A stretch of DNA of 64,000 bases, from NCBI GenBank assembly GCA_004022145.1, contig RCNU01000004.1; one strand, given 5' to 3'. The notes under the pieces are model-generated. The model was not told the origin of the DNA. It ran no database searches and saw nothing but the letters and a program-made list of their open reading frames with translations. Position 1 is the stretch's first letter; the number at the start of each line of letters is the position of its first letter. Positions 19,917-62,868 of this stretch are shown piece after piece. This DNA is from Paecilomyces variotii (taxonomy: Eukaryota). A program made the position numbers and the translations under genes.

Positions 19917-21105
19917 ATGTCGGCACAGATAGGACTATCGGGGGAGCCACCTGGTATATGGCCCGATCTTGCCCGCCGTGCAAAGGAAAAGATCAATCAG
20001 TATGAATACATCCCATCTCTAGACGATGAAAAGCTCGTTCCTTGCATGATCGCACTACTGGACTACCTACCCGAAGGAGGTAGGGAGTCGATTGCCCGCG
20101 ATATCCTGGGTTGTGAGAGCAACAAGAAGAAGCTGTATGATGTCTTTCAGAACATCCGTAGCTGCCTTCTTTTTGCTAGTAAGTGCACAGGATTTTTTGT
20201 GCATTTTTCTGAAATACTGAATTGTATCATACAGTGAAGGCTGCCGGACATAGTTCCATCAATAGAACTCCAATTGATGATGACAGGAAGGACAACGTTG
20301 AACCTATAATCTCAGAATTAAATTATCCGCAACACCGAGAGCGCCAATTTCGGGATAAGGTGCTCTATCGTGATAGATTTCGGTGTGTCGTGACGAAAGA
20401 TATGGACTTTAATCACTGGGAGAAGGTCGGGGAACCCGCCGGAATTATGTACTCTGAGCTGGAAGCAGCACATATAATCCCCCTTCCACTAGCCTCGTGG
20501 AAGGAATCCCCCGTAAGCATTATTCGATCCGCGTTCTCCTGATACAATACATGACTTGACTTGACTGAAAAAAATAGACTGCCTCGTTTGACGCCAGTAA
20601 CGTATGGGAGATGCTGTACCGATGTTTTCCGAAAGTGCGACAAATAGGCATGAAAGTGGACAATATTAATAACCCATGCAATGGCATTTCCTTGCGGGAC
20701 AGTTTACAAACCCAGTTCAGAAAATTTCACCTTGCTTTTGCTCCGACAGTATGTCTTAACATCAACCTAGGTGTTGGTGGCATGAAGCTTATTGTGCATA
20801 TTGTCTAGGCCATTCCTAACACATACAAAGTGAAAACATATTTAGCTTTCCCGACCTACCTAAGAAGAGATATCCCATATGATGGATTCATCTGCTTCAC
20901 GGACTCTAGCAATGCGCATGACGTTCCTTTGCCGGATGCAGCGTTATTCGATTGCCATTACAGGGTTGCGGAAGTTCTCAATGCATCAGGGATGTTGGGA
21001 GAGATAGATACAAAGATCGAAGAGTGGGAAGATATGGAAGTGAACATGTGGGATGACCATTTGGCGGAAGACGGGACAACGGACATTTCTGCTCAAAGTC
21101 CTTAA
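19917..21105 (+). CDS. Fungal HNH_2-type endonuclease-domain protein; exons 19917-20178, 20235-20512, 20578-20748, 20809-21105
   Basis: Spliced frame is intact and contains LYRDRFRCVVT...LEAAHIIP...NINNPCNGISL...LPDAALFDCHYRVAEVLNASG, the layout of fungal HNH_2 proteins. Confidence 0.8.
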
Positions 21106-22783
21106 AACTGAGGCGATGATGATTGTTTATCGAATATTAAATGGCACGGAAGTATGTCTGATTTCAACCGCATAGATTGTACATCTAGGCTGCTTGACTT
21201 GCTTGCTTGATTCTAGTTCGAAGGGGTCATTTGAAGTCATATTTATCCCCTATAGCATACAAAGAATCTAGATCCTAGTGATCTAGTAGGTAATTAGGAT
21301 TTAAAGAACCTGCTTCAAATAGATCACCTAGACGTACGCTTGTGCGTCGACACTGTTCAGAGTCTTCGAATTCAGAGTTCTTCTATGATACTTTTCCTAT
21401 ATCTTTGATCGATGTGCCGGCTGAGCCTGATAGAACGATTTGGATACACTCAGCCCACCCACAATATACTAACGCCCCTCTGGTTTAGGTGTTAGCGCAA
21501 AAAGTGCTGTCTAAAAAAGCACAACTGGACGAGTGCCGAATGCAAAGACGACTATAACTAATTATTATAAGAGAGACGCATTGTAGATTATCATAACTCA
21601 TGAAACTCTTGGGTAAAATGTCATATCACCAATATAAACCCACTAGAATAGGTATAGTACATATATTGGCAGCTCCTTCACGGGCCCATGTGAAGATATC
21701 CTAGCAGGGATAATTATCTACTCCCGAGTAATTGAATAACAAGAGCCACGTGCGGTCTCTAAATTGACTATTGGCAATAGGGAATTAGGCTCGCGTCTGG
21801 CGCTTCGAGTACAATCAACGCACGCATCCTTGGCATAGATAGTAAATTATATCAAGCTAATTCTACTCACGCGGGATGAGAAAGGACTATACTGATCGCT
21901 TAATTTTATTTTCTACAGGGGACTTTTATAGTCATTATGTAATTTTATCCTCCAAGCAGTTAACTAACTAGTTACCCTACTCTATTCCTCTTATGTCTAT
22001 CACTCCATCCTGCCAGACTATTTAATTAACGCTCAAGGTCCCCTCTTGTTTGTCCTTGTTATTATTATTGTTCGCTTAATACCTCAAATTAAACTTCCCC
22101 CTAAACTTCCCCCTTCGAATAAGCTAACGGATGTAGATCCCTATCTCTAGCGCATAAGATAAGCAGGCACGTTCGTGGTGATAACTTATGGGCGCATCTC
22201 TTCCCGATGAAAGATACATTATGATTGGACCAAGCTCGGAGAAAGCTTCTTTTGCCCAGATAAAACAGGGGCATGCATGTTAAATAATAGCTTTATGACC
22301 ATCAAAGCCAAAGTCGTGCATCGTTATCAGATATTACGAACCACGGGGATATATCCAAGATGGGATATTGTCGGATCTTGCTCCCATGCAGCAATCCAAG
22401 CAGCACCTGCAGGTGTGCTATTTGTAATTACGGATATGCAACTACAAACGGACGACCACTCATACCGTGGCTTAATTCCATGATACGAGTAGCAGGGTAA
22501 CAGCAGCAGCGATGGAAGCTTTTCTGGGAACTCAGCAAGTCCTGTATGATAAGTGCTGTAGCTACATCGTTTGATTGCGGTTCATTCTAGATATCGAGCA
22601 ATAATAGTTAAAAAAGGGTTTTGAACTTGACTCTATGTTCTGCCCAGCTTTTGGCTTCCCGTGATCTGTGATTCGACAGATATATAACTCCTCTGTTTTC
22701 CCCTCTCCCCCTTTACCCCCTTGTTAGCGTCATTATTATAGGCGATAATCTCAGTTCAACCTGCGGTGAACGCGTATATGCGG

Positions 22784-22789
22784 AAAAAC

Positions 22790-22818
<29 letters not shown>
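22784..22818 (+). repeat. Poly(A) tract of ~30 nt
   Basis: ggaaaaac followed by an uninterrupted A run in the AT-rich intergenic region. Confidence 0.9.
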
Positions 22819-22820
<2 letters not shown>

Positions 22821-23770
22821 AAAGAAAAAGATCATTCCGCTGACCAATCCATAGAATAGTTAGTTACTTGTCAAAGCTTCTCTGTCTCAAGTTCTAGAGA
22901 CCCACAGATTGAGAGAAGACGATCCCAGGACCCCCACCAGTTTCAGAACTCTGAGAACCGGGTCGTCGTGATTTTTTTCTTCTTCTGACTATAAATCTTA
23001 CGTATGGCGTATCCAACTGCTCTAACTATGGGTAGTGGACCGGTACAGTGATACCGGGAGCGAAAATCGATGGAAAAGAAAAAAAAGAAGCTACTACTAA
23101 GATCGTCCATGCAAGATGCAGATTAGCATCTGAGCTCCAATTCAATAGTCGTTCTAAACTTTCAGCTCTTTTTTTTTTTTTTTAAACTTCTTGGTCCCCG
23201 AGGACCGCCGAAGGAGCCGTTAAACAAGTTCAAGGGACGGCGTTGTTCTAAGAAAGTGTAATCATGATGATTAATGATTATTCCCCGCCAAGATCTGAGA
23301 TCACATGAAGTGTGGCCGTACATTTCCGGATGTGGTTAGTGTATCCGTGGCTGAGGACAAGTGGCTCACTCGAATTGTGGCGTCGTGGCTGTGGTATAGT
23401 TTTTATACAGGTACATTTACAGTAAAAGTTTTAGTTACTAGTGTAGAGGTTAAACGCAAACTCAAAAGCCCACGAGGTGACGAGTGAGACCCAGTAGCGG
23501 CCTTAGCACTTCTGATGGGGAAGACGGTAAGCTTAAACAGAAAAAAAAGGGGGGGCCAAGGCAAGAAACAAGCCAAGAGTCCGGATCGTGGCCGAGATGG
23601 ATTAGGCCGACCTTCTTGGAATTACGCTAGTCGTTTACTACTACTACGAGAGTCTAGAGTACTCTTGAGTTTTGATGTGTTATGCTAAGATACTACGGCT
23701 GTTACTACAGGGACGGTGTTCGATTATCTTCTCCGAAGGCAATCGTAAAGGATTGCCTATTCTTACTGTA

Positions 23771-24022: not shown

Positions 24023-27000
24023 TCAGACCTCTGAGATCGTCTCTGATATCGTGGCCTTGCCATCGGGACCTTTGCCCTTCTTCTCATCTATCGTGTCTGG
24101 TGTATCGGCCCGGGCAGCATCCACATCACGGTTCAGCAGTTGCCTGCCAAAAGGATACGTGGTGGGCTTTCTCGGTGCCGGCTCCTGGCTGGCGTGCTCC
24201 CACACCGTCAGAGTGAAATTCTTACCGAGCAGCTCGATGGGCGGCGTCAAGATAGGGAGAACGGCAAAGATCATGCCATAGCAGATGATTGCCGTCAGAA
24301 GGACGCACAACCAGTAAGGTAGGCCATAGGAGAAGAGTGTCACCATAGCCCACGAACCAGCAGACCACATGATGAAACCGTGAATCAGATAGATAGTGAA
24401 GATGTGAGGGAAGACCCACTGCAGAACCTTGACCGAGAGCACTCTTTGAACCACAGGGGAAATTTCCACGATGGTTTGCATGCTGACCGTGGTGATCAAA
24501 GCATTCAGTCGAGGAATGTAGTAGTCCGGGTAGAGGCTGCGTCCAGCCTGTACGATGGCGAGACCAGTCGTCGTGTCGGGATGCCACCCATATTCCTTTT
24601 CGGCATACTGGACACCGGTGTACTGGGGAATCAGGTCGAGAGTGAAGCCGCCCAGAGTGACCGCGATGAGGAACCACAGGATAGGGTAGTAGACGAACGG
24701 GCGAGCATGCAGCCACTTCTTGTACTTGAAGGTAAGGTCAAGGTCTGCAAGAAGCACTCCGGCGTAGTAGTAGCTGCCCCACGAAAGACCGTACCAGTGG
24801 TTAGCGATGCAGAAGGCGTAGAAAGCCATCCGCTTCCAAGGCGTCTTGCATTGCTTGACCATGATCAGACCAATCAGAGTTTGCCAGGCGCCCTGCAATT
24901 GGACGGGGATGGTCCAGAGCACTCCGGTACAGTAGTTGTTGGTGATCTGGGGAGCGGCATTTGGAATCAGGAAGGCGAGCTCAACGATCTCACTGATGAA
25001 CACACCAGGGTTCTGCACAAGCGTAACGTACGGCCACTGTGACCACGTAACAGAAGGGAGGTATTCGAGCCAGTTCACGGCTCCCGAATCCATGAGGAAG
25101 TACTCGAGAAGAGCAATTGATGCGACCGGAGTGAGAAGACGGAACGGACGAGAAACAATTTTCTGGGCCATGTTTCCCAGGTTGCCTGTACGAAGATAAT
25201 TGGAGATGAGGAAGCGGGTGGAAATCATGAGGAACGGCCCGATCCAGAGAGGATCTAGGAAGTAGGTTGCGATAGTCTTTCTCGCCCACAACTCACTGGA
25301 ATAATGGTGGTCCAGTCCAGGCTCCAGGACGGATGCGAAGAAGGTCAAACAAAAATGGTTCACCGTGACCAGAAGCGCACTCATAGAGATGAAACCAGCC
25401 AAGTAGTCAATGCGCTGACGGGGCAGAGCAGCTCCTGCAGCCGGAGATGCTTTGACTGCAGGAGTCTTGCGTTCGGTCGCCGCAGGAGCCTGGGGATCCT
25501 GCCTCTGTTGAGGCACATCTGCAGAGAAAAATCCTGGGGTAGGGGGTGCGCTCAATTCCATCGAAGGATGCACCAGGGTGCTGCTGCTGGGACTACCATG
25601 GTATTCCACATCTTCCTTGATGGATCTAGGAGTTTTACTGGTCCCTGCACGGCGTCCCTGGGTTCGTGAGATGAGAGAGCTTGCCTGCGCATCTGCCGGA
25701 TAAATTGGCTGGATCGTCAGATCGTCAGCTGAGTTGGTTCGCGATGGCCGTGGGGATACTACTGGGGTTTGATATTGAGGTGCCGGGGTTTGAGGAACAG
25801 AGTACGCCGGCGGTGGTGACAGGCTAGCGTAAGAAGACACATTTGGAAGGTTATGTCTGCTCGCAAGAGGACTGCCAGTATCAGTGTTTGCGAGAGTCGC
25901 GCCGTCGTCAGTTGACTGAGCGTCGCTCTCGCTTCTGTCTGAGGCCGCAGAGGAGCCCGCAGTCTCCTTCCTTTCCTTAAGGCCAAGGAATTCATAGAGG
26001 GAGTCCCAGGAGGCTCTCCGCCACAATGTCTTGACGAGTAAGATTGTAAAGACAGAAAGGAAAGCAATGTCAATCGCAAGAGGAACCCAGGGAATCGTCC
26101 ACTTGGGTTGGGCCTGCTTCCAGGGTTTCGTGGCATCGAGATCATAGGCCGTGGAGCCTCGAAGAGCGTTGTCGCTCATGGGACAGGCTGCAGTACGTGT
26201 GCATCGTGCATCGAAATCCTTTCGTGTCTTGTCTGTCGCCAACGACGAGTTGTAGAAGATACGAGTCCAGCCGATGTTTGCCTGAGAGCGCTGGGTTGGA
26301 GGGCCCTGGCAGCTATATTTGTTTCCCGTTGACCAGTGCTGCCATTTCAACGGTGCCGGTGTGCTTGGTAAAGTTCCGTTTTCCTTCTTCGTGTACGTCT
26401 TTTGGAGCTGGCCGTCGATGTAGTAACTGATGTTGTCTCTGGTCCAGTCCACGCGATATTCGAGGTAGTACCACGGATCCTCTCCAGCATGGATGAGATC
26501 GGTGAAATTCTTTCCCAGCCAGATATCAGGGAAGACACCATTGGCAAGCATGGAGACCCAGGCCTGGCTGCTGTTGTCGGTGTTCATCACGTCGATGTTC
26601 CATCGCTCAGTTTCGTTGTGATAGAGCAGCATCGATAGAGCAGATCCCCTGTGCCAGGACCGCGGGGCACGCATAGAAGACCGGAAAGACCCGAAAAAGA
26701 TGTCTTGACGTTTGGTGCGGATACTCGCGCCATTGACCAAGTGCTCCTTGTCTGAGGGGTCAATGGCGAGCTCCAGGCTGGTGAGGTTGCGCGCGGTGGT
26801 GTCGTTGACGATGTTGACATTGTCCACCTTGGCTCCCTGACGGTAAACGGTGTTCCAGCCTAGATCATACCTGTGCTCGAATGACTCGATGACCAGGTCG
26901 TCAGGGACACCATTGGTTTCGTTGAAGTATACAATGGTGCTGTCTGTGAAGAGGAGGTCGGCGTCTTCATCATAGAAGCCGCACGTGCAGCTGGAAACCT

Positions 27001-27073
27001 CCCGGGTCGTCAACTCCTGAGCACGGCAGACAGAGACCAACAACACCAACACCCACGACCAGAGAGACGCCAT
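24023..27073 (-). CDS. Fusion protein, 1016 aa: signal peptide + GH16-fold (ConA-like) domain with degenerate catalytic motif + TM helix + S/P-rich linker + acyltransferase-3 (AT3) membrane domain
   Basis: Intronless ORF. Signal peptide MASLWSWVLVLLVSVCRA. GH16 hallmarks CTCGF, ASIRTKRQDIFFGSFRSSMR, YLEYRVDWTRDNISYYIDG, PAPLKWQHWSTGN...GPP. AT3 hallmarks RIDYLAG..., SRPFRLLTP, GVLWTIPVQLQG, IFTIYLIHG, with about 10 hydrophobic helices. Confidence 0.88.
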   Translation of the reverse strand: MASLWSWVLVLLVSVCRAQELTTREVSSCTCGFYDEDADLLFTDSTIVYFNETNGVPDDLVIESFEHRYDLGWNTVYRQGAKVDNVNIVNDTTARNLTSLELAIDPSDKEHLVNGASIRTKRQDIFFGSFRSSMRAPRSWHRGSALSMLLYHNETERWNIDVMNTDNSSQAWVSMLANGVFPDIWLGKNFTDLIHAGEDPWYYLEYRVDWTRDNISYYIDGQLQKTYTKKENGTLPSTPAPLKWQHWSTGNKYSCQGPPTQRSQANIGWTRIFYNSSLATDKTRKDFDARCTRTAACPMSDNALRGSTAYDLDATKPWKQAQPKWTIPWVPLAIDIAFLSVFTILLVKTLWRRASWDSLYEFLGLKERKETAGSSAASDRSESDAQSTDDGATLANTDTGSPLASRHNLPNVSSYASLSPPPAYSVPQTPAPQYQTPVVSPRPSRTNSADDLTIQPIYPADAQASSLISRTQGRRAGTSKTPRSIKEDVEYHGSPSSSTLVHPSMELSAPPTPGFFSADVPQQRQDPQAPAATERKTPAVKASPAAGAALPRQRIDYLAGFISMSALLVTVNHFCLTFFASVLEPGLDHHYSSELWARKTIATYFLDPLWIGPFLMISTRFLISNYLRTGNLGNMAQKIVSRPFRLLTPVASIALLEYFLMDSGAVNWLEYLPSVTWSQWPYVTLVQNPGVFISEIVELAFLIPNAAPQITNNYCTGVLWTIPVQLQGAWQTLIGLIMVKQCKTPWKRMAFYAFCIANHWYGLSWGSYYYAGVLLADLDLTFKYKKWLHARPFVYYPILWFLIAVTLGGFTLDLIPQYTGVQYAEKEYGWHPDTTTGLAIVQAGRSLYPDYYIPRLNALITTVSMQTIVEISPVVQRVLSVKVLQWVFPHIFTIYLIHGFIMWSAGSWAMVTLFSYGLPYWLCVLLTAIICYGMIFAVLPILTPPIELLGKNFTLTVWEHASQEPAPRKPTTYPFGRQLLNRDVDAARADTPDTIDEKKGKGPDGKATISETISEV

Positions 27074-29037
27074 TCTGTCTGGCTTGAGAAGTACAAAGGA
27101 TTATGCAGGTACGGACAAGGTCCCTGGCAGAAAGGCGCTGAAGAACAGGAGGACGATGGCGGCTCCTGGGTCTTAAGAAAACGACCTTCGACCAAGCTTG
27201 CTTCTGGTGCAGTCCAGTCCTGAACTTATCAATTATTATCGCCCGTGGGGCCCCAGCAGCACTGCTGATCCGCCCGTGGACGACACTAGATACGTCTCTG
27301 GGCTGAATCTTGGTTCTACTTCCGACGATGTCCTCCCGGTGTCGGTCTCGAATCGTTCTGGTTCGGATTCCCACCCACCTAGAGGAAAAGCTCGATAAGG
27401 CTACGGATGGATGCGGTCTGATAGACTCGATATTACCGAGATAGTATCTGACATGGGGCCTGCAGGCCTATCATCCAACAAACGGTCCACGCCCTTGATG
27501 AGATTTCCGTCTCAATGCTACTCAGCCCTGACGATGTGACCATAACGATTCTGTCAGCAGAACCATGAGTCGACTGAAAAGTATACTACTTTTGCAAGGA
27601 CCCCCAGCTAGGTCCTCCGCTTGACCCACCGTGTTTTGTGACGGTATTGAAGCACCGAGTATGGATATCTTGTGGCGCTCTCTTATACAGCTGCGGTCCG
27701 GCCAAATTATTCGGCCTTTTTTTAGCTTCAGCCATGACCTTGAGGACTTGACACTAAAAACCTGCTCGCCTTGAAGCTTATCTGAAGGTTACTGAGCAGA
27801 ATAGGTAATGCTTCATGGCGAAGATGGCCGAAGAAAAGCTTCCCTCAGAGCGATAATCTTGGTTGACGGACACCCTAAAGAAAATAGCTCATCGTCTGAC
27901 ACTGATCCCACGGAAAAGCAACCATCCCACAGGCTGACCGATATTCCGCATAAATGAAACGAACGGACGAACGAACGAAAGAAAGAAAGAAAAGGCGTGA
28001 TCATGGCACTCTGAGTCGTTTTCGATACAGATCGGCAACGCGTGCAACTGAGGATGCAGCGCATCAGCCGGGCGACAGGCACATCAGTAAGCAGCGCAGG
28101 CGCCGTTGGCGGTCTCGTGCCAGTGAATGCGGGAGAAGCGCAGTTGTTACCAGGGGACGCTGTCAGGCACGGGAAGTGATATCCTGCTAGTCGGGACCGA
28201 GATGTAACTTAAAATTCTGCAGGCTGTCGATCACTGGGGATCTCTCCACCAGCATCATCCATCGTCAAAGCGCGGATCTATCTGAAGTGGCGCCGACATC
28301 TGCGAACCGGTCAAGGGACTCCGACCCCAGCAGAACGCCACGCTACTGAGCCACGAGGGTAAGAAAGGGTAAACCTTGAATGCCGAGTCTCTGGTACCTG
28401 ACTACCAGTATTATGATTTTCTGGATCTCGGACAACATTCTGGCGCCCGCTACGTCAGTCAGTCCCTTCGGACGGGATCCTGCTGTCCCTACAATGCAAA
28501 TGGAATTGAATTTTTTTCTCTCGGTAATTGATCTCGGGCGATCAACCATAACCCATGAGTACCTACTACTACGACAGCACGTACTCGGGTACCCACGACG
28601 TATGGGAGCCAGACTAACTAACTAGTCGCGACGTATCTACTACCGTCTACGACTCTACGAGTAAGTACAATCCAATCCGTTAGTCGCCGACCGACTCTCC
28701 GGGAGATCGGCGGATGCTAGATAGTAGATACTAGGGTAGTAGAGGCCCGCTAGCGCTTTACAACCCAACTCTAGGCTCCGAGCTGGAGACGTGAGCCCAA
28801 AGATCCAGCAGGGTATCGACGAGATACGCAACTAAGTTATCCTTATCGGGTTCCCTGCTCTGATGGATTCCGAGAAAGTTTGCAGGCGCCTCGGCCGACG
28901 ACCGGGCTTGTCTTTCCTTTCTGGACAGCGCTGGGTTCATTCAAAGGTGCGCTTGCGCCAGCACATTTGATCGAAGTTCTCCTCGGTTTTCCCATCAACC
29001 ACAGCAGTCCAGTCTTGACGGAACATCATCCTGCAAG

Positions 29038-30639
29038 ATGTCGACCGCACCCATGGCGAACGGCTCTGAGGAGGACCTCTTTGACGGTGCGTACCAGCGC
29101 CAGTCGCGGCCAAGGCAGCTGCGCTCCAGCATGTCCAAGATGGTCAGTAGCCTCTCCTGGACGATCAAGACGGCATCAGATGGAATTCAAGACTGGACTC
29201 CATTCGTGCTCGTGTTTTGTTATTTCGCCTTTTCCATCTGCATCTACATGGTTGCGTCGTCGGGGGTCATGAAGGTCTTCTGGTTCGTCTACCTGATGAC
29301 CAACACTTACATCGCCGCTTCTACCGTTGTCGAAGCCATGTTCAGTGTGGGCAAATACCACGAAGCCAAGGTGGCCGCGGCCAAAGTCGAAAAGAACCAC
29401 TGGACCTTTCCGACCCCGGACGCGGAAATGAAGAACCTCGACCTATGCATTGTCGCCTACCTGCCCAACGAACAAGATATCATCCTCGACCGCATCAACT
29501 ATCTGTTGCAGGAGATCGTTTACCCGCGCGATAAGCTCCGCATTGTCGTTCTCTACAACACGCCAACCCCCATTGAGCCTCTTGAGACTGAGATGCGCGC
29601 CATGATGTTGAAGCACCCAGAACTGCGAGTTATCAAGGTGCCCAAGTCTAAGTCGAAGGCCGATAACATCAACTACTACTGTTCTCTTGAAAATGATGCG
29701 GACGTGACGGCCATCTTTGACTGTGATCATTACCCGCACCCGTACAATCCGCGATGGGCAGTGGAGAACTTCCAGCGCGATGATCAAGTCGATATCGTCC
29801 AGGGCCGCTGTGTTATCTTCAACTCAGACGACACCCTCTTGACTGCCATGATCTCGGTCGAGTTTGACAAGATCTATGCCGTCTCTCACCCCGGACGCTC
29901 TACCATGTTCGGGTTTGGTCTGTTCTGCGGTTCCAACGGTTTCTGGCGAACGTCTCTCCTCCGGCACCTGAAGATGGACGAGACCATGTTGACCGAGGAT
30001 ATCGATTCGGCCCTACGAGCCTTTGGTGTCGGTGCCAAGGTCATCCATGATCTGAACGTCGTCTCATTCGAACTGGCCCCGACTACATGGCCAGCTTTCT
30101 GGAAGCAGAGACTTCGATGGAGTCAGGGCTGGCTGCAGGCCAGCGTAAGACATATCCATAAGGTCTGGACTCGATCTCCGGAGGGCCGGAAGCGCACGCT
30201 TACCCACCGGTTTGGCTTGCTCTCGCTGCTCTACATTCGAGAATCCAGTTACTACTTAGTTACACAGTATCTGTGCCTGGTGGCTGCGATCGTTATCATG
30301 CGATGGCCTCAGTCGGGCGAAGACCTCTTTAAACTGGTGTTCTTCATGTACCCTGTTGCATGGTGGCTCTTTATGTTCAGGTAAGTCTCTTGCTAGCGTC
30401 CTTCTGCATGTTCCTATCCGAAGTTCGGACGGCTAATGTGCGCCTGCAGTTGCATTTCCTACGTTGTTACTCTCTGGATCACCTTCCACACACGATCCGA
30501 GTTTGTGCGGTGGTGGCATATCATCGTCTTCACTTTGACCTACCCGGCCCAGCTTATCCTGACAGCGGTAATGGGTCTATTTGGCCACGCACGCCAGGTC
30601 AGCAAATACGTCAAGTGGAACCCGACCCCGAGAAGTTAG
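29038..30639 (+). CDS. Processive family-2 glycosyltransferase (polysaccharide-synthase type), ~510 aa; exons 29038-30380, 30450-30639
   Basis: AYLPNE, KADNIN, FDCDH (DxD), IVQGR, GSNG, LTEDID and QRLRW motifs. Two N-terminal and several C-terminal TM helices. Intron GTAAGT..CTAAT..CAG. Confidence 0.9.
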
Positions 30640-31855
30640 CCGGCACGGGCTGGTCGGTGGAGCAAATGAGATTTGGTTACGTATGAGGAGTTTTGGTTTT
30701 TTTTGGACTTTTTGGGCTGTACACATTACATTTATCCCGGTTCTTTTTGGGTTAGCAAAAGTGGGATATAGAGTGGGATATAGATGATTCTTCATTTTTG
30801 GTAGCGAGAAAATGCTTGGCAATGCCTGTTTTCTTCCGACTTGGATCTTCACACCAAGCTTTCTATTATCTAACCAGTGAATTGGTTTCTTCCTCGCATG
30901 TGATAAGGGGACCGACGCAGCAAATCAGCGCACTCCTAAAAAAGAAAAGATGAAGAAGAAAGAAAGGAGAGTAAAGAAGCATTCGGACCTTGGTGGAAGC
31001 CCACTGGTCACATCGTCTACTGCAGGGCCCGGATCACCGCGTGGGACAGGGCCGCGTTGCTAGGTGGGTTACATAGCCGAGAGAGATCGACGTGCTTAGC
31101 CTTTGAATCACATCTTTGGCCATCAGAAGCACCATCCGTCAAGAGACAGAATGGCGGGAAAGGCCACCGGGTGGCTTCGGGGGCGCTCGACGAGACCCTG
31201 ATTTGGCACGGGAGCTTCCTCTGGTTCAGGTCGTTTCAGGTCCAACTCCAAGGCTAAAAAGCGAATGGAGAAGTCCAGAGCTGCCAAGGCGCGAGAAGAT
31301 GCCAAGAGTGCGGTCTGAATCCCCTTTCCGTTCCGTGGCGCGCGGAATCTAACATCCAGCATCCAGAAATGAACTATCCATGGACCCTAAAATGACGCTA
31401 GAGGGTAACGTACGACTCTATACCAGTTGCCGTTTAGTACAGCACTACAGCTCCATCGTGAAGTCTAAAATGCTTATCGGATCGACATCCAAAGAGGGGC
31501 GTGTCTAAGCTTTCTGCTCAAGAGCATTTTGCTGCGGATCGAGTCGGTGAAACGCCGTATTCTGTCGCCATGGAAGCTCTTGCACCTGGGCCACGAGCTG
31601 AACGGAGATCCGCTAGAGCACGGTCGAGAACTTCCTACTTGGTCCATGGACTACGCTCAGATCTACAACCCCAAATATTGGGCTATCGACCGGGTTCATG
31701 GTACAGTACCATCGCCCGTATCGTCCCAGTTGGTTTCTAGCGTCCGAGCGATGCATTACCTGCTCCAGTCTATCTAATGCAGAAGCGAAGCAGACAGTGC
31801 CTGCATCACAACCCCGGAGCTGGAATTAGCTTCTTACCATGATATGGTTACCGCC

Positions 31856-31875
31856 GTCTCTCTCTCTCTCTCTCT
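31856..31875 (+). repeat. (TC)n microsatellite upstream of the second AT3 gene
   Basis: gtctctctctctctctctcta. Confidence 0.8.
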
Positions 31876-32255
31876 ATCTGGGTCTTATTCGGACACGGAA
31901 CTGTACCGTAAGCCCACCATCCGTTCTGCTGTCCCCTCTTTGAGGACCCCGAGATCTCTCCAATGGTTCTGGACTCGTACGTGAGAGGCTAATCGGTCTG
32001 GTTCGGAGAGGTAGTAGTTTTCCTGGGTCTTTTTTTGCTTTCCCGCATTAGCCATTTACTTATGCTATCAGCGCAGGTGTCATTGAAATGTGAAAGCATC
32101 CCCAACTTCTCTTTCCTCTCAACAGATCACACGTCTCTTCTTGCTTTCTGTTGCTGTATTTGTCTGCAGTCGGCTTGGGAACTCCTCCTCATCTGCCTGA
32201 GGATCTCTTCTTGGACTGTTTGGATCTCGTTGCCCTTTTACCGTTTCTGCCAAAC

Positions 32256-33642
32256 ATGGGGTTCGCAGAGATCGTCAACAGTGCCCCCAAGCTCAAGATG
32301 GGCTCGCCCACGGAGTATGAGCAGCCCTATCTGTTGGGTTTCCGCGGCATCTTGGTGATCGAGACGTTTCTGTGGACATTCCTCCGTACCTTTGCTCCTA
32401 CTACTGTGTACGTTTCTGCGGATCCCAATGGTCCCTTTTCGTACCAGATAGTCCGCAAGATCTTTTCGGTCCTCTTCTGGAACGAATACTTCCTGTATGG
32501 TGCGATCATCTTTCTCTCCGCGCGCTCAATTGCCATTCCGTTTATCAGGAATCCAAAGGCGGAGCGGGCTGCCATGTCGATGATGTGTCGTGGTATCACC
32601 CTTTGGTTCCCAGTTGCTGTGTCCGTGGCCATTGCGACTCTGGCTTTTGCCATTGGTGGCACTGAGTACATCGCCGACTTCAAGACGCGGACCTCCAACC
32701 ATACGACAGCCGTGCCATATGTGATCCCCAACGCATTTGCCTACTTCAACTCCGTATTCAACATGTTCTGGACTACTCGTGACTACAACATCCAAGCGGC
32801 CAGCACGGCGTTCCCCACTGGTACCCTGTGGGTTATCTGTGCTGTGTACATGCAGAGCTACACTGTCTACATGACCATGCTCATCATCCCGTACACGCGC
32901 AACAAGTGGAGAGTCCAGGGCGCCTTCGTCTTCGTCCTGTGCGCCTGGTGGTGTCAGTCTTGGGCATGGTTCACCATCTCTGGTCTGATCCTGGCCGATA
33001 TGGTGATGAACATGAACTTCAAGGAGCGCGCTCAACGCGGTATTCCAGTCTGGACCCGCGCTGATGGCAGCCGGATCTGTATCCCCGTCTTCGTGCCAGC
33101 CGGTTTGTGTCTGATCGGTGGTCTTCTCATGCAATACCTCTGGGTGGCCTACCGGCCGGACCTTTTCGACAAGGAATGGCTGGTTCATACCGATCCCTAC
33201 TACACCGCATCGCTCAACTTTCAGTACGCGACACGCCACACGCAGGCCCGTGACGATGCGTATCTGATGGTCATCGGCATCTTCCTGTTCTTGGAAAGCT
33301 ACGATATCCTTCAGCGGATCTTCTCCAATGGCTTCCTCGTCGCTCTTGGAAAGCGCTCTCTCAGTAAGTTATCTTTTGCTATGCAATCCGGTTGTGAGTA
33401 ATCTTGCTGACTGCTTTCTTCCAGGCTACTTCCTCGTCCAGTCGAACATGATGTACATTGTCGGCATCCGCGTGTTCGAATCTCTGTATACCAAGCACCA
33501 CATCTCTTTCGGTGGCTCCAACATGGTCGCCTTGATCACCTGTCTGGTTGTCACCATCCCGTTGGCCGAGCTGTTTTATCGGTTGGTGGAGTTGCCGAGC
33601 AAGCACCTGGCGCACAAATTCTATGAGTTCATCACCGCATAG
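32256..33642 (+). CDS. Acyltransferase-3-like polytopic membrane protein, ~441 aa; exons 32256-33363, 33425-33642
   Basis: YLLGFRG TM1 motif, IIFLSARSI, FPTGTLWVI, LGKRSLSYFLVQ (equivalent to LGxxSyslYLxH), and C-terminal AELFYRLVELPSKHLAH typical of AT3 proteins. About 10 TM segments. Confidence 0.82.
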
Positions 33643-34385: not shown

Positions 34386-35616
34386 ATGTCGGCTACCCCT
34401 CTCTATCTCGGAGTCATTGGTATGTCCCACCACGCTTCAGAACCACACATGGCACAAATCTTTCGGCAGAGATGATAGTCAACTCCCGAAGAACTACGGC
34501 TGACTTTTTTTTTCTCTATTGTCTTGATTTCCAGGCGTTGGTGGTGTTGGAGCCGCCTTTCTCAGCCAGCTGGCCCGTCTGCCCAATGCTCCATCGCTCG
34601 TCCTGCTCGCCCGCTCGACGCAGACGCTCCTCTCCCCAGCGCCGTCATACTCCCCTGCTATCCCGGCTGCAGACTGGCAGACTGCTTCGTCGACGCCTTC
34701 CTTGACCAAGTCTGGGTCTCTTTCGCCACAGGAGATCGCATCTTATCTCTCCGCTGCTCCAGGACGCTCTATCCTCGTCGACAACACCTCCGACCCCGCT
34801 CTCGCGAGCGCTTATCCGGTCTTCCTCCGTGCAGGTATCTCTATTGTCACGCCCAACAAGAAAGGTTTCTCGTCGGATCTGTCTCTGTGGAAGGATATAT
34901 TCGCCGCTGCGGCTGAGGGAAAGGCGCTTGTCTACCACGAGAGCACGGTCGGGGCTGGTCTCCCCGTCATTTCGACTCTGCGGGATCTCGTCGCGACCGG
35001 CGATGAAGTGACTCGCATCGAGGGTGTCTTCTCCGGCACCCTGTCTTTCCTGTTCAACACCTTTGCGCCCGTCTCGAGCAGCGGTGCGTCCGCGTCCTGG
35101 AGCGCTGTCGTCGCCCAGGCCAAGGAGCTGGGCTACACGGAACCCGACCCCCGCGATGACCTCAACGGCATGGACGTCGCGCGCAAGCTGACCATTCTGG
35201 CCCGTATCGCTGGCCTGGAGGTGCAGGCACCGGACTCTTTCCCTATCGAATCGCTCATCCCCGCTGAATTGGCCTCTCTGCCCAGCACCCCCGAGGGCAT
35301 TACGCAATTCATGACCCGTCTGCCCGAGTTCGATGGCCAGATGGCCTCGCTCAAGGAGTCGGCAGAAAAGGCAGGCAAAGTCGTTCGCTACGTTGGCAGC
35401 ATCGATGTTGGCAAGAAGGAGGTCCGCGTTGGACTGCAGCAGTTTGACAAAGACAGCGCCATTGCAGGATTGAAGGGCAGTGACAACATCATCAGCTTCT
35501 ACACGAAGCGATATGGCGCCAATCCCCTTATCGTGCAGGGTGCAGGAGCCGGTGGAGATGTCACCGCTATGGGTGTTACGGCTGATCTGATCAAAGTCAT
35601 GGAGAGATTGAGATAG
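34386..35616 (+). CDS. HOM6: Homoserine dehydrogenase; exons 34386-34419, 34535-35616
   Basis: MSATPLYLGVIG/VGGVG Rossmann motif across the intron, then LVDNTS, TPNKK, HESTVGAGLPVI, GYTEPDPRDDLNGMDVARKLTILAR and GAGAGGDVTAMGV. Confidence 0.96.
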
Positions 35617-49059: not shown

Positions 49060-49811
49060 ATGGTTCTCCCGGAAACAACAAGACAACAGATCACTGCGGC
49101 TCTTTTTCGTCAAGAACCTTACCCGTACATCTGTCTCACCTACAATGTCTCTGACAGACAACTCCGGAGGATAGCACATTGTCTTCGAACATGGGGGACG
49201 ACGGTACCGCCACGAAAAGAGCATACAAAGCCAATGGGACGGCCTCCAGTTGTGCCGAAAGAGGTCCAAGAAGTATGCCGCGGGGAGGTACAGTTAAATC
49301 GTTTCAGATTAGATAATTGATTCCTATCCAGGAACTCCGAGATTATGTCGAGAAACACCCAATAGCTGGACTCAAAGAGATCCAGTCTTATCTGCAAAGT
49401 GAATGCAATACCAAGTTCGGCCTTTCAACGATATCGCGGCGGCTGAAAGATATGGGGTATGCCCTCAGCATCGTGTCTCGAGGAGCAACGTCGGTGGAAA
49501 AGGACAATATTCCCAACCTTAGCCAAGAGGACAGGGAACGCTTGTTACTGGATCCCGTTGCAACGGAAGCGATGGCTGGTCGCGGTACGGTCTATGCGTG
49601 GTTAAGAGGCACCAAGCCAGTTCCACGTCGGCAAGGCGTCCGACCAAAGAGGAAGAGAGCTTCCGATGATCCTCAAGGACACGAAGTAGAGGATGATAGA
49701 GAGCATTGTAGTGAATTTTCTGATGTGGACTCGCCAGAACACGATGCTAATGGCCCGGGTGCAAATATACGGGCCTCAGAGCCTTCAACCACCCATGGCA
49801 CCTTAGAGTGA
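49060..49811 (+). CDS. Tc1/IS630-transposase-like bipartite HTH protein without a DDE domain; exons 49060-49272, 49332-49811
   Basis: HTH1 (ICLTYNVSDRQLRRIAHCLRTWG), GRPP linker, HTH2 (YVEKHPIAGLKEIQSYLQSECNTKFGLSTISRRLKDMGY), basic NLS-like RPKRKR and acidic tail. 59-nt GT..AG intron in phase 0. Confidence 0.7.
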
Positions 49812-59498: not shown

Positions 59499-60296
59499 CT
59501 AAGGACGGAAACCCTCCCACCTGCCCTCCGCAGGCATCAAACCATCTGTCTCTATACCAAAACAATCCAACATGCGCGCCACGCTATGGTTAACAATATC
59601 ATCCAGTCCCTTCGGCCTAGTATAGAATGCCGGGACAGCGGGAAAGATAATCACGCCCAATTTAGCCAGCGCTAGCATATTCTCAAGATGGATCGCACTG
59701 AGCGGCGTCTCCCTTACAACCAACACCAACGGTCTGCGTTCCTTGATACACACATCCGCTGCGCGAGAGATCAAGTCCTCTGAATAACCCGCTCGTATGG
59801 CAGCTAATGTTTTCATACTGCACGGCGCGATGAGCATTCCATCTGATTTCCAGCTTCCGCTGCTCATAGGTGCAGCCATGTCGCGGATGGGCCAGGATCG
59901 GCCCGTCGCGAGTGCCGCGACGTCTGCGACGCTGTATGATGTTTCGTATTTGATTGTCGCGTGTGCCCATTTTGACTTGATTAAGTGCGTCTCAATGCCT
60001 AGAGTGCGCAGATACTGCATGGCTACAACGCCATAGATGACGCCTGTTGCGCCGGTCATGCCAACTATGAGGCGGTTGTGTTTGAGACCCGTAGGCGGAG
60101 GTGAGGGCATAGAAGAGTATGGTTGCCTTGCATGTTGGGATATATGAGAAGTCGTTGGTTGATACAGTTGGTCAATTGGTGACGATAATTGTAAACCTTT
60201 CGCTCGAACTGGAGTTGTGGTTGCCGGTGTTGTTCTCAACCAAGAGGCATTGATTCTGCTCGCTGTGCGGGAAAATGAAGGAATTGGTCCCAGCAT
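59499..60296 (-). CDS. PAD1: Flavin prenyltransferase (UbiX/Pad1) with N-terminal mitochondrial-like presequence
   Basis: RLIVGMTGATG, SKWAHATIKYET, AAPMSSGS, IAPCSMKTLAAIRAGYSEDLISRAADVCIKERRPLVLVVRETPLSAIHLENML, PAFYTRP. The first ~60 aa are R/S/T-rich and nearly acid-free. Confidence 0.95.
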   Translation of the reverse strand: MLGPIPSFSRTASRINASWLRTTPATTTPVRAKGLQLSSPIDQLYQPTTSHISQHARQPYSSMPSPPPTGLKHNRLIVGMTGATGVIYGVVAMQYLRTLGIETHLIKSKWAHATIKYETSYSVADVAALATGRSWPIRDMAAPMSSGSWKSDGMLIAPCSMKTLAAIRAGYSEDLISRAADVCIKERRPLVLVVRETPLSAIHLENMLALAKLGVIIFPAVPAFYTRPKGLDDIVNHSVARMLDCFGIETDGLMPAEGRWEGFRP

Positions 60297-61215
60297 CCTC
60301 TCACAACACAGCTAATTTACTCGCCCGTCAGATCGTAGATCGAAGGCACAGTCTGACAAAAATAAATATCGATTTCCATGGGTGGTATAGCAAGCATATC
60401 CCATTTCAAGCGCTCGGTTAGCTCTTGTCTGTTTTGCATCGTCATCATGCGACAGCCGGCGTAGAGCCGGGAACTACTCCCGTTGTAACCGGATGCCGCG
60501 TCAAGCCGATCATTATTGGGGCAGATATGTTCCTGGTTTGAGGCACGAATAAGTTATGCTCCAGTGCGTCTGTATTATTATTTAATCTTTCTCTGGACGT
60601 GAAGATGCTGTCCCTTACTTGGAGAAAGATTCGTTCTTGTTTGGGTTGACAATATGTTGTCATCTGTTACTATGTATCGAGTATTCAACTGGACCAAGTG
60701 TAGCAGTAGCAGTACCTCGACCATCTAGCCATGTTACGCGGCACCTGCGAGCTGTATTAATTTTTCCACTCATAAGATTGAGGTTTACGTCTTCAATATT
60801 CTGCTCAACGGCGAAAGAAGGTGGCTGCTTCTAACGTAGTTACCTAGGTATGTTGGCGAGACAGAGTAGATCCAGTTGCTACTAACTTAACCAAATTTAC
60901 CAGCCGGCACATTCCAGTCTCCAAAGTTGGCTAGCCAACTACATAGCTATGTAAGTAGTCTATCTGGATTCTGAGGTAGATATCTCCAGAATCCAGATCA
61001 ACAGCCAGTGTGGAAATAGATGAGTCGGGCTTTTCCCCCGGCCTCCCCGATCTCCCCGTCGGGACCTATCCGCCGGCACTGACGAACGGCATAAACAGAG
61101 ACACGTTACCTCGGGATCCAATCTAATTATCTTTAGATGGATGTAGAGCCCTGTACTATTTTGTCAGTAGATTCTCTAAAAGAAAGTGACAAGGCTTCTG
61201 TATCCCTACCTGTAC

Positions 61216-62868
61216 ATGATGAGTTTAGCGACCGCGGGCAAGTGGACAACCAGGCGGTTGTTGAGTCCTGCTCAGCAGCGATGTTTCTCCAAAGCACCTT
61301 GCAGATGCAGCAGCAATCGTGCCATTAGTGAAGCAAACAACACTCCTCATCTCAGCTTCCGATCGTTCATATCTGCCCTGCGTGAGCAAGGAGACTTGGT
61401 GGACGTTAAGGAACCAGTATCAGCCGACCTGGAAGCTGCCGCAGTAACTCGTCGAGTATATGAGAAGCGCGCACCAGCACCGCTTTTCCACGATGTTATA
61501 GGTACAGATCCTAAAACCGGCCTCTTTCGGATTCTAGGAGCTCCAGTTGGACTCCGTAAGAATAAGAAGGACCAGTATGGACGTCTGGCATTACAACTGG
61601 GTCTTCCCGCAACAAGCACCGCGCGGGAGATTGTTGAGAAGATGATCGCGGCCAAAGAAGGCACTCCCCTGCCTCCGGTAGTTGTGGACAGAGCAGATGC
61701 ACCATGCAAAGAAAATATCCTTAAGGGCAGTGAGGTTGATATGACTAAGTGGCCCATTCCACGTCTACATGAACTCGACGGTGGTAACTACCTCGCTACA
61801 TACGGCTTTCACATCGTCCAGACCCCTGATAAGTCTTGGGTGTCGTGGTCCATTTCGCGGGCAATGCACCTTGCTGGGGAGCCACGGGCACTTACTGCTC
61901 CTGTCTTGAAAGGCCAACACATCCATGCCGTGAGACAGAGATGGATTGATGCTGGAGAGGAGAAGACTCCTTGGGCGTTAGTATTGGGCGGTCCTCCTGC
62001 AGCAGCCTTCGTGGCAGGCATGCCTCTTCCATACGAAGTCAATGAGGACGGTTATGTGGGAGCACTTTCAGGGTCTCCCTTAGAGGTCGTTAAATGCGAG
62101 ACGAACGATCTATATGTGCCGGCAAACTCGGAGATTGTTCTGGAAGGTCACATTTCCAACTCCAAAACAGTTCCTGAAGGTCCCATGGGCGAGTACCATG
62201 GCTATGCCTTCAAAGATAAGCCTGTCATGAAACCACTCTTCCATGTCGACTGTGTTACCTACCGAAAGAATCCGGTGGTACCCATCTGCGTTGCTGGTCT
62301 GCCGCCAGACGAGACGCACACAGTCTGGGGGCCATCTATTTCCGCAGAATTACTCTCAGCATTGCGCAAAGCTGGCTTCCCAGTGAATTTCGTTTGGCTC
62401 CCACTCGAAGCATTGTGCATCTGGATCTTCGTTAGCGTCGATACCAAGAAGCTTGCGAGCATGAACATCTCCCCAGAAGAACTTTGCAAGCGTGCGGGAG
62501 AGCTCATATTCGGCACACACGCTGGCTGGGAGATCCCGAAAGTGTTCCTTGTGGGAGACGATGTCGATATCACTGATATCAACCAGGTGCTTTGGGCGCT
62601 CTCTACCCGCTACCGACCTGGAGCGGACGAATACATTTTCGATGAAGCGACTGGGCTTCCCTTGTTGCCGTACATGATGCGAGCTACGAGGAAAGAGGTC
62701 CCTGATCCGGGCAAGGGAGGAAAGAGTGTTGTGAACCTGCTTCTGCCGGAAGAGTTTAATGGTGAGAGGAACTGGCTACCTAGCAACTTCGAAGGATCCT
62801 ACCCGGAGGATACCAAAGAGACTGTGCTCTCCAAATGGGAGAAGTATGGATATTCAAAGGATGAGTGA
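61216..62868 (+). CDS. prFMN-dependent UbiD/Fdc1-family (de)carboxylase with N-terminal mitochondrial-like extension
   Basis: FRSFISALREQGDLV, LEAAAVTRRVYE, APCKEN, PRLHELDGGNY, WSISRAM, QHI, VKCETNDLYVPANSEIVLEG, EGPMGEYHGY, DETHT, VGDDVDIT...WALSTR. First ATG is at 61216; the track start at 61186 is a GTG. Confidence 0.93.
   Translation: MMSLATAGKWTTRRLLSPAQQRCFSKAPCRCSSNRAISEANNTPHLSFRSFISALREQGDLVDVKEPVSADLEAAAVTRRVYEKRAPAPLFHDVIGTDPKTGLFRILGAPVGLRKNKKDQYGRLALQLGLPATSTAREIVEKMIAAKEGTPLPPVVVDRADAPCKENILKGSEVDMTKWPIPRLHELDGGNYLATYGFHIVQTPDKSWVSWSISRAMHLAGEPRALTAPVLKGQHIHAVRQRWIDAGEEKTPWALVLGGPPAAAFVAGMPLPYEVNEDGYVGALSGSPLEVVKCETNDLYVPANSEIVLEGHISNSKTVPEGPMGEYHGYAFKDKPVMKPLFHVDCVTYRKNPVVPICVAGLPPDETHTVWGPSISAELLSALRKAGFPVNFVWLPLEALCIWIFVSVDTKKLASMNISPEELCKRAGELIFGTHAGWEIPKVFLVGDDVDITDINQVLWALSTRYRPGADEYIFDEATGLPLLPYMMRATRKEVPDPGKGGKSVVNLLLPEEFNGERNWLPSNFEGSYPEDTKETVLSKWEKYGYSKDE

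Follow-up and report, generated by a model that had tools for sequence, protein, structure and literature searches.

A 64,000-nucleotide stretch of the Paecilomyces variotii genome (GenBank assembly GCA_004022145.1, contig RCNU01000004.1; here called the window) carries three neighboring genes, g1, g2, and g3. We read them as a conserved unit that makes a beta-linked glycan, destined for the surface or the extracellular space, and modifies it on its way out of the cell (probability of roughly 0.55). They encode, respectively, a glycoside hydrolase family 16 (GH16)-fold ectodomain fused to an acyltransferase family 3 (AT3) membrane domain, a processive glycosyltransferase of family 2 (GT2), and a stand-alone AT3-fold membrane protein. 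An earlier reading of this DNA from its letters alone (the sequence-only reading) had described this trio, and its description holds with small corrections: the GH16 domain has no catalytic glutamates, and g3 is a very divergent AT3. The analysis upholds a conserved fungal synthase-acyltransferase module of bacterial design, the unusual parts of which are a catalytically stripped GH16 domain and a complementary, probably dimeric pair of AT3-fold proteins.

In the proposed mechanism, g2 would polymerize a nucleotide sugar at the cytosolic face and thread the chain through its own membrane helices. The g1 and g3 proteins, two distantly related members of the AT3/transmembrane acyltransferase (TmAT) fold acting together as a heterodimer, would move acyl groups from cytosolic acyl-CoA via a membrane pore to an acceptor outside. 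The GH16-fold domain of g1, having lost both catalytic glutamates, would keep the growing beta-glycan at the outer opening of the acyltransferase, in the place that the SGNH domain occupies in bacterial OafA/OatA. The module would descend from a GT2-AT3 pair like those found as neighbors or fusions in present-day bacteria.

The linkage of the three genes is conserved across fungi. Metagenome contigs were scanned with the g2 family profile, which yielded 80 loci, 45 of them fungal-like (41 to 72% identity), and the fungal-like loci were searched by tblastn with the g1 ectodomain, the g1 AT3 domain, and g3. Merging of loci with GT2 DNA at least 95% identical left 34 groups, which were judged if they offered at least 5 kb of upstream and 3.5 kb of downstream sequence. 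All three genes were present in 14 of the 14 judged groups; the remaining 20 were too short to judge, and their partial flanks show the expected neighbor (e.g., L006, L009, L033, L036, and L039). Two gene orders were found. In that of the window, g1 is divergent from g2 and g3 lies downstream on the g2 strand, with a g1-g2 gap of about 0.9 to 2.1 kb elsewhere (3.4 kb in L006, the flank of which is cut short). In the other order, seen in 5 of the 34 groups (L015, L017, L025, L040, and L037), g3 sits between g1 and g2 on the strand of g1, and the g1-g2 gap is about 3.9 to 5.3 kb. That the linkage survives this rearrangement argues for selection on the cluster.

Named genomes gave the same picture. 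The three genes bear consecutive locus tags in five of them, namely, Rasamsonia byssochlamydoides (6505/6504/6502), Claussenomyces sp. (006989/88/87), Rhinocladiella mackenziei (00323/22/21), Leptodophora sp. (011185/86/87), and Sarea resinae (002080/81/82), and two of the three are neighbors in six more (Talaromyces atroroseus, a Chaetothyriales isolate, Coniosporium tulheliwenetii, Lachnellula suecica, Hyphodiscus hymeniophilus, and Cryomyces antarcticus). Judged by locus tags, the linkage thus extends over Eurotiomycetes, Leotiomycetes, Sareomycetes, and Dothideomycetes. The synteny search for which the sequence-only reading had called therefore came out in favor of co-occurrence, in the metagenome groups and in the named genomes alike.

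Homologues of g1 fall into two identity bands (about 55 to 68% and about 41 to 46%), each with its own g2 and g3 partners. Since Paecilomyces proteins occur in both bands (P0316 of P. variotii, 51% identical to g3, and P0067 of P. lecythidis, 42% identical to g1), an old duplication of the whole trio is likely on these sequence comparisons. Paecilomyces appears to carry a second, older paralogue of at least two trio members, which matches the group dominant in Dothideomycetes. In a separate observation, two records labelled Quercus suber (P0481 and P0485) contain a GT2-like protein of the fungal g2 family, merged in one of them with a GH16 domain (1423 amino acids); they are probably fungal DNA in a plant assembly, with neighboring genes fused into one model.

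The pairing of a synthase with an AT3 protein recurs in bacteria. Bacterial GT2s are 36 to 46% identical to g2 over the catalytic domain, and many have response-regulator, GGDEF, or PAS N termini; relatives with organism names include Streptomyces and Nocardioides. We scanned 35 bacterial-like metagenome loci with Pfam (123 of 164 nonoverlapping open reading frames [ORFs] of at least 250 amino acids, the far ones being omitted, and 3 more for L063). A canonical AT3 (PF01757, E values of 7e-16 to 1.6e-29) was paired with the GT2 in 15 of the 35 loci, fused to it in 3 (L050, L064, and L080) and directly downstream in 12 (L046, L051, L053, L056, L063, L065, L068, L070, L072, L077, L078, and L079). 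The other 20 loci had no AT3, 8 of them with less than 1.5 kb of downstream DNA. Among further relatives of g2, P0399 is a PAS-AT3-GT2 fusion, P0397 is fused to BcsB, and P0437 is fused to a PgaA-type porin. The recurrence of this pairing indicates that the module is not a fungal peculiarity, and the fungal trio probably derives from a bacterial-type GT2-AT3 pair, adjacent or fused. The AT3 sequences themselves are far apart. Hidden Markov models of the fungal AT3 groups matched the 15 bacterial partner translations weakly (best E value, 0.0012), and hhalign against a profile of 14 partners (the shortened L079 was omitted) gave an E value of 0.0042 and a probability of 8% over 339 columns for g1 and an E value of 5.3e-5 and a probability of 67% for g3, over the last 93 columns only. 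Conserved linkage in fungi and GT2-AT3 pairing in bacteria lend strong support to the earlier proposal of a three-gene functional unit dedicated to an extracellular glycan.

The bacterial loci (L046 to L080) are of interest in their own right. They appear to represent a widespread module, a response-regulator-, GGDEF-, or PAS-linked GT2 followed by or fused to an AT3. As far as we found, this regulated GT2 with its AT3 partner, present on many Actinomycetota-like contigs, is undescribed within the literature searched. Genes for a PMT-type glycosyltransferase and PPK2 lie near the module in L052, L058, and L079.

The identity of g2 as a synthase was clear from motifs and profiles. The protein matched PF13632 (3e-18) and PF13641 (4e-13), and its DCD, TED, and QRLRW motifs line up with their counterparts in BcsA and do not vary across 28 aligned sequences, two chytrid proteins among them. 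All three lie in a GT-A domain flanked by membrane helices, as in processive membrane GT2s; from the translation, two hydrophobic helices are N-terminal and about four are C-terminal. The processive GT2 with DxD, TED, and QxxRW motifs that had been proposed is thus present. Among solved processive synthases, the g2 family profile matched bacterial cellulose synthases only (BcsA 7lby, 3.5e-18; 5ej1, 1.3e-15), and it additionally matched the small archaeal GT2 6yv7. By these matches g2 is a BcsA/PgaC-like processive synthase, the sugar of which is not readable from sequence.

The choice of sugar separates our reading from its closest rival, a system of the ica/pga type in which g2 would make poly-N-acetylglucosamine (PNAG) or another N-acetylglucosamine polymer and the AT3 pair would O-succinylate or O-acetylate it as proposed for IcaC. 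We consider this rival doubtful. The top NCBIfam model for P0124, a database protein identical to the spliced g2 model at 479 of 510 aligned positions, was PgaC_IcaA (71.3 bits, near full length), ahead of the cellulose models (TIGR03030/NF008558; 56.2 bits for CelA and 46.6 bits for the second), and PgaC_IcaA was also the top model for four of the four bacterial relatives scanned. The porin fusion of P0437 points the same way, and PNAG has reportedly been detected immunologically on fungi without a known synthase. Every one of these scores is, however, far under its equivalog cutoff (422.3 for PgaC_IcaA, TIGR03937; 699 and 992 for the two cellulose models), and because 71 bits fall so short of 422, g2 is not a PgaC/IcaA member. 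The order of the models was reversed for the sister-group GT2 P0173 (CelA, 77 bits; PgaC_IcaA, 63 bits), and the solved synthases reached by profile were those of cellulose. P0397 is joined to BcsB, the cluster has no deacetylase gene, and the nearest folds of the g1 ectodomain are beta-glucanases.

As an analogy rather than a membership, staphylococcal icaADBC (with pgaABCD of Escherichia coli) is nevertheless the system closest in logic to the trio. It combines a membrane GT2 (IcaA/PgaC) with the AT3-only IcaC, which is thought to O-succinylate the polymer (PMC9558356); PgaC_IcaA is the top model for the P. variotii-type GT2, and bacterial relatives of g2 show the same GT2-then-AT3 order. 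The trio differs in having no IcaD/PgaD, deacetylase, or porin, in having two AT3-fold proteins versus one in ica, one of them with a GH16-fold ectodomain, and in its eukaryotic host.

The g1 protein is built from an outer and an inner half. Its first 19 residues are probably a signal peptide, judging from the hydrophobic translation, and are followed by the ectodomain, a single membrane anchor, a disordered linker rich in Ser, Ala, Pro, and Thr (29, 26, 25, and 16 of 189 residues), and the AT3 domain (Table 1). The linker is probably cytosolic; if the ectodomain faces outward and the linker inward, the AT3 domain would enter the membrane from the cytosol like bacterial AT3 domains.

The ectodomain has the GH16 fold without the GH16 catalytic residues. 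PF00722 (GH16) matched g1 at an E value of 5e-10 (39.6 bits, cutoff of 22) and matched 25 of 26 aligned homologues. In an AlphaFold model of the whole protein, the domain has a predicted local distance difference test score (pLDDT) of about 80, and Foldseek placed lichenases at the top (1mac, 8.7e-10; 1gbg, TMt 0.75), with laminarinases and the Crh5 transglycosylase next. The catalytic signature of GH16 enzymes, ExDx(x)E, provides a Glu nucleophile, a helper Asp, and a Glu acid/base. By strand order, the 1gbg strand with I106-D107-I108-E109 is replaced in g1 by a beta strand at residues 157 to 164, RWNIDVMN, so that the signature reads NxDxxN; the next strands, WVSMLA and EYRVDW, fit the following lichenase strands, and EYRVDW was aligned by HMMER. 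Sequence and profile searches of the PDB with the GH16 part aligned C-terminal strands only (Crf1 6ibu, 5.5e-4) and did not reach the catalytic strand. Among the 26 homologues, residue 159 is variable (N/D/S/E/Q/T), residue 161 is Asp within the group of the window and mostly Asn or Ser within the sister group, and residue 164 is Asn in 25, Ser in 1, and Glu in none. Replacement of both glutamates by amides is the classical route to an inactive, binding-competent retaining glycosidase. The hydrolase role that the sequence-only reading had given to this module is unlikely because the catalytic ExDxxE residues are missing; the domain is probably a binding module, as far as its residues tell.

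For the g1 arrangement of a membrane pore with an outer domain for the acceptor, the nearest model is, by analogy, the AT3-SGNH architecture of OafA, OafB, and OatA, in which the AT3 pore is joined to an extra membrane helix, a linker, and an extracytoplasmic domain that handles the acceptor (PMC7448272, PMC9558356). In g1, the outer domain is instead N-terminal and of GH16 rather than SGNH type, and the Arg of the R/K-X10-H motif described below is missing. Without catalytic residues, the outer domain could bind the acceptor and would not perform the final transfer as SGNH does.

The membrane domain of g1 was recognized mainly through its family. PF01757 (AT3) was matched at an E value of ≤0.01 by 15 of the 26 aligned homologues (best, 7e-9), and precomputed PF01757 matches exist for many family members; GH16 chains took up the whole Foldseek list obtained with the full g1 model. 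Within the domain, H573, H831, H890, and H898 are invariant, and H573, H890, and H898 are kept in 26 of 26 sequences. The g3 protein itself had no Pfam match, and PF01757 and DUF418 were matched by 1 (1.6e-4) and 3 of its 28 homologues, respectively. However, hhalign of the g3 family against the g1 AT3 domain gave a probability of 98.9 and an E value of 2.3e-17 over 392 columns (g1 residues 565 to 981). The g3 model (pLDDT, 77; pTM, 0.79) found no match in the PDB at an E value of ≤1e-3 with plain Foldseek. A wide structural search retrieved HGSNAT (8jkv, Z score of 16.6; 8tu9, Z score of 15.0; 291 residues aligned, root mean square deviation of 4.5) and GWT1 (8xik, Z score of 9.8), after which the next chain dropped to a Z score of 4.8. 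HGSNAT, GWT1, and AT3 proteins have been united as the TmAT superfamily (PMC12423673). We assigned g3 to AT3 on the strength of the hhalign and fold results: the ten-helix TmAT fold is there, and neither a PF01757 match nor a complete R/K-X10-H motif is. The stand-alone AT3 that had been proposed beside the GT2 therefore stands as to its nature, in a far more divergent form with no Pfam match of its own.

The two AT3-fold proteins have a loop motif in common. An E-x3-H motif is invariant in both (g1, E827/H831, positions 24581-24595; g3, E307/H311, positions 33174-33188) and was not seen in the profile of bacterial AT3 partners; helix counts would place this loop outside the cell. Many charged residues of g3 are likewise invariant. 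We predicted a complex of g1 residues 545 to 1016 with g3, using P0004 and P0244, each one residue off the window, and leaving the supplied alignments unused. The ipSAE values were 0.77, 0.77, and 0.76, and the best of three controls, homodimers not among them, reached 0.00. The models have a partner pLDDT of 80 and about 150 contacts, of which at least 84% recur between runs. Of 78 solved complexes, 51 reach the mark set for this test, as do 2 of 108 mismatched pairs (eukaryotes, 39 of 65 and 2 of 126). Residues 832 to 838 of g1 and residue 312 of g3, next to the E-x3-H loops, lie within the predicted interface. The model supports binding, and g1-AT3 and g3 probably form a heterodimer.

Several observations weigh against the reading of the trio as a glycan-acylating machine or against its details. 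In OafA, the first transmembrane helix (TMH1) carries an R/K-X10-H motif, the His of which (H25) is invariant in 31 characterized AT3 proteins, and the R14A and H25A variants keep 0.07% and 0.33% of activity, respectively (PMC7448272). We placed the corresponding residues through alignment to the profile of 14 bacterial AT3 partners and the g1-g3 alignment. In g1, TMH1 reads I562...H573: the His is invariant and the Arg is gone, position 562 being Ile or Val in the family. In g3 it reads R30...T41, with R30 in 96% of sequences and Val at the His position in most homologues. The losses are complementary, g1 keeping only the His and g3 only the Arg, and TMH1 lies outside the predicted interface, so the dimer would not rejoin the split motif. 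A second conserved, C-terminal His is present in g1 (H898), as in bacterial AT3s, and is Gln in g3 (Q375). Compared with the other residues, conservation at the predicted interface is not raised in g1 (0.71 versus 0.70, P = 0.38) and is slightly raised in g3 (0.74 versus 0.66, P = 0.018). The two chains are distant homologues of each other, HGSNAT has reportedly been solved as a dimer, and the complex test may have been passed through likeness to HGSNAT. PF01757 on g1 itself reached an E value of 0.24 (10.8 bits, cutoff of 31; profile positions 13 to 322 of 326). The catalytic strand of the ectodomain was placed by strand order and family alignment against a 1gbg fragment, not by residue-level superposition. 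Finally, P0470 of Neophaeotheca, from a related lineage, has replaced DxD, TED, and QxxRW altogether and kept the gene, which indicates that the family does something besides polymerizing, at least in that lineage. With neither AT3 carrying the full R/K-X10-H motif, the acyl transfer put forward earlier is still the best reading, yet it is not assured.

These observations give some room to a second rival, in which the unit is real but its AT3-fold proteins transfer no acyl group and serve as export, scaffold, or regulatory subunits, with the dead GH16 domain as a wall-anchoring or chain-guiding lectin. Each protein is without one TMH1 residue essential in OafA, g3 is without both conserved histidines, and the gene retained in the catalytically dead GT2 lineage shows that nonenzymatic roles occur in the family; IcaC, too, was first taken for a PNAG exporter, and its role is called unsettled (PMC9558356). 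The conservation pattern speaks against this rival, since H573, H890, and H898 of g1 and R30 and many charged residues of g3 are maintained at the frequencies given above. The bacterial partners are, moreover, canonical AT3s, and the common E...H loop could supply outer-face chemistry. We regard a trio with nontransferring AT3 proteins as unlikely.

Within the preferred reading of a glycan-acylating machine, a more specific version joins all the unusual features, namely, an obligate TmAT heterodimer with a split TMH1 motif and a new, invariant E...H loop at the outer face, a dead GH16 domain in the place of SGNH, and an O-acylated beta-glycan at the hyphal surface as the product. We put this combination forward tentatively. 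In it, the product may underlie the immunological PNAG reports on fungi, or it may be an acetylated glucan as in lichen fungi.

Two further readings concern the product of g2, and both appear very improbable. In the first, g2 would be the fungal mixed-linkage glucan synthase (Tft1/CelA) and the GH16 domain a lichenase trimming its product. Fungal GT2s do make mixed-linkage glucan, as for AfTFT1 (PMC4344333; preprint 10.64898/2026.09.17.752320), the Aspergillus Tft1/CelA makes beta-glucan when expressed in Komagataella (same preprint), and structure comparison of the ectodomain puts Bacillus lichenases first. According to the preprint, though, the TFT1 lineage is 70 to 96% identical to AfTFT1 and includes Sordariomycetes, and its switch motif lies at residues 548 to 558, past the end of g2 at 510 amino acids. 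Among the best 120 g2 homologues, no row with an organism name (most have none) is an Aspergillus or a Sordariomycete, and outside Paecilomyces identity exceeds 73% only in fragments of 368 amino acids (75%, 81% coverage) and 454 amino acids (74%, 87% coverage). Tft1/CelA is a longer protein and, by length and match list, of a different lineage, and the available text of the preprint describes no partner genes. The GH16 catalytic glutamates are missing as well. By these comparisons g2 is unlikely to be a Tft1.

In the other reading, g2 would make a short oligosaccharide signal in the manner of NodC, and the AT3 proteins would decorate it as NodX and NolL do Nod factors. NodC belongs to the GT2s and NodX and NolL to the AT3 proteins; fungi release chito-oligosaccharide signals, for which no genes are known. 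Weak NodC matches came from three of the four scanned bacterial relatives (P0404, P0394, and P0437), but the fungal GT2s gave none at an E value of ≤1e-3. The C-terminal membrane helices of g2 resemble those of chain-translocating synthases, and a GH16-fold glycan-binding domain suits a polymer better, which leaves this reading little ground. That the genes are independent and adjacent by accident, for which only the general rarity of fungal functional clusters outside secondary metabolism speaks, can practically be dismissed in view of the complete trio in all 14 judged loci in two gene orders, the consecutive locus tags, and the bacterial GT2-AT3 fusions.

The conserved glycan-modifying trio that we propose can be compared with a few other systems. 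OpgH is a GT2 beta-glucan synthase, and OpgG is an extracytoplasmic glucan-handling protein. Together with OpgC (MdoC), a stand-alone AT3-type succinyltransferase (PMC9558356), they follow the same three-part logic; the likeness is one of logic alone, as the families of synthase and outer protein differ and the products are bacterial periplasmic oligomers. Among fungal systems, the Aspergillus galactosaminogalactan cluster is likewise an exopolysaccharide cluster. It combines synthase, modifying, and hydrolase-like genes of the families GT4, GH114, GH135, and CE18; these families are all different from those of the trio, and its product is deacetylated, versus the acylation proposed for the trio.

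Fungal membrane GT2s already described include Cps1, ZtGT2, and FgGT2, which are presumed to make an unidentified outer-wall or matrix polysaccharide and form a Cps family found in filamentous ascomycetes and not in yeasts (PMC5653360, PMC9500679). The Cps2 paralogue subfamily is described as restricted to Leotiomyceta, often lost, and uncharacterized (PMC9500679, PMC5653360), and its distribution resembles that of the named g2 matches. Cps1 itself differs from g2 in having a single N-terminal membrane helix, two C-terminal ones, and a disordered tail (PMC9500679), versus two and about four helices in g2. Look-ups of clusters for 20 representative GT2 relatives returned no Cps1 or ZtGT2 name, and the protein atlas returned generic GT2 clusters only. 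A term search of the retrieved text of the two Cps papers (PMC5653360, PMC9500679) returned no AT3 or GH16 neighbor gene. Compared by description only, g2 may belong to the Cps2 subfamily.

Transcription was seen for g1 and g2. In X6 and X7, two runs of one sample under the same species label, RNA contigs cover g2, g1 in parts, and the spacer between them in parts, and contigs of both are spliced at the g2 intron (joint 30377>30447 'GT..AG (cut +3)'), which confirms the g2 model. These contigs do not cover the g3 region (positions 31727-33642), from which no inference on g3 expression follows. In the spacer they cover positions 27393-27650, 27724-27949, and ~28196-28523, and one contig ends at 28523 in eight loose A's that are absent from the genome. 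The spacer transcripts could be long 5' leaders, an upstream noncoding transcript, or a small unannotated gene; ORFs in the spacer are short only (50 to 83 amino acids). In the metatranscriptomes X2 and X3 (food fermentation), the whole stretch from 24023 to 33642 is present unspliced, in pieces of up to 12.9 kb that run across genes and spacers; the X2 copy is a single contig of 12.9 kb that shows 41 substitutions and a few indels. Being unspliced and spanning genes and spacers, these contigs represent DNA carry-over of a closely related strain and are no evidence of expression.

The gene models are collected in Table 1. The product of g1 equals the database protein P0004 ('CAZyme family GH16 [Paecilomyces variotii]') apart from I995V, and the spliced product of g3 has the 441-amino-acid length of P0244 with one difference, D270N. 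The g2-g3 spacer is 1616 bp. Zero, one, and one introns, a divergent promoter region of about 1.96 kb between g1 and g2, and an AT-rich gap and HOM6 as borders had all been reported from the sequence, and all agree with the models and measurements. The gap (20543-23679, beside g1) has a GC content of 0.42 versus 0.53 in the cluster and contains no ORF of at least 100 amino acids.

Table 1. Positions of the trio, its parts, and a downstream neighbor in the window
Feature	Position	Strand	Basis or remark
g1, whole gene, GH16-like/AT3 fusion	24023..27073 (27073..24026 + stop 24023-24025)	-	single ORF, 1016 aa, 0 introns
g1 residues 1-19, N-terminal hydrophobic stretch MASLWSWVLVLLVSVCRAQ	27017..27073	-	translation; helix 2-14 in model
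g1 residues 29-320, GH16-fold ectodomain	26114..26989	-	PF00722, Foldseek
g1 residues 159-164, NIDVMN, in place of GH16 catalytic ExDxxE strand	26582..26599	-	translation, model
g1 residues 329-353, single membrane anchor after ectodomain	26015..26089	-	model helix; hydrophobic, then RR
g1 residues 365-553, disordered linker	25415..25981	-	pLDDT ~30 across 367-553; aligns poorly among homologues
g1 residues 554-962, AT3 (TmAT) membrane domain	24188..25414	-	PF01757, ~10 long helices in model
Divergent g1-g2 spacer, 1964 bp	27074..29037	.	gene models
g2, processive GT2, 510 aa, one intron	29038..30639 (29038..30380 + 30450..30639)	+	
g2 exon 1, GT2 synthase; DCD 29719-27, TED 29992-30000, QRLRW 30106-20	29038..30380	+	
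g2 intron, GTAAGT..CAG, 69 nt	30381..30449	+	sequence + spliced RNA-contig joint
g2 exon 2, final membrane helices + stop codon	30450..30639	+	
g3, divergent AT3/TmAT-fold protein, 441 aa, one intron	32256..33642 (32256..33363 + 33425..33642)	+	
g3 exon 1, divergent AT3/TmAT-fold membrane protein	32256..33363	+	hhalign + fold match
g3 intron, GTAAGT..CAG, 61 nt	33364..33424	+	sequence; spliced length = P0244
g3 exon 2 + stop codon	33425..33642	+	
Homoserine dehydrogenase	34528-35616		downstream of g3

No further glycan-related gene was found by Pfam among the 23 long ORFs scanned in the window, nor was PilZ or BcsB. Elsewhere in the window, a flavoprotein gene (PF02441; 59499-60311, minus strand) adjoins a gene for a UbiD-family decarboxylase (61180-62868, plus strand), neighbors (59499-62868) that we take to resemble the fungal Pad1/Fdc1 phenylacrylic acid decarboxylase gene pair. 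A weak match to a Tc3-type transposase helix-turn-helix at 49317-49811 (plus strand; E value of 5e-4, below the cutoff) may be a Tc1/mariner remnant.

Our literature search, in which subscription journals were thinly covered, turned up neither the trio nor a GH16-AT3 fusion nor AT3-dependent acylation of a fungal glycan, in agreement with the sequence-only reading, which knew of no characterized fungal cluster with this composition. Little work exists on eukaryotic AT3 proteins (PMC9558356). Both drugs and the immune system target the walls and matrices of fungi, and for several of their polymers no synthase is known; a conserved, transcribed, uncharacterized trio predicts a new polymer and a new route of modification. 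If the more specific version with an obligate heterodimer is true, it would be the first description in fungi of a system that acylates a glycan through AT3 proteins, and the division of R/K-X10-H between two subunits, together with a dead GH16 domain in the place of SGNH, would show which parts of the AT3 mechanism are dispensable.

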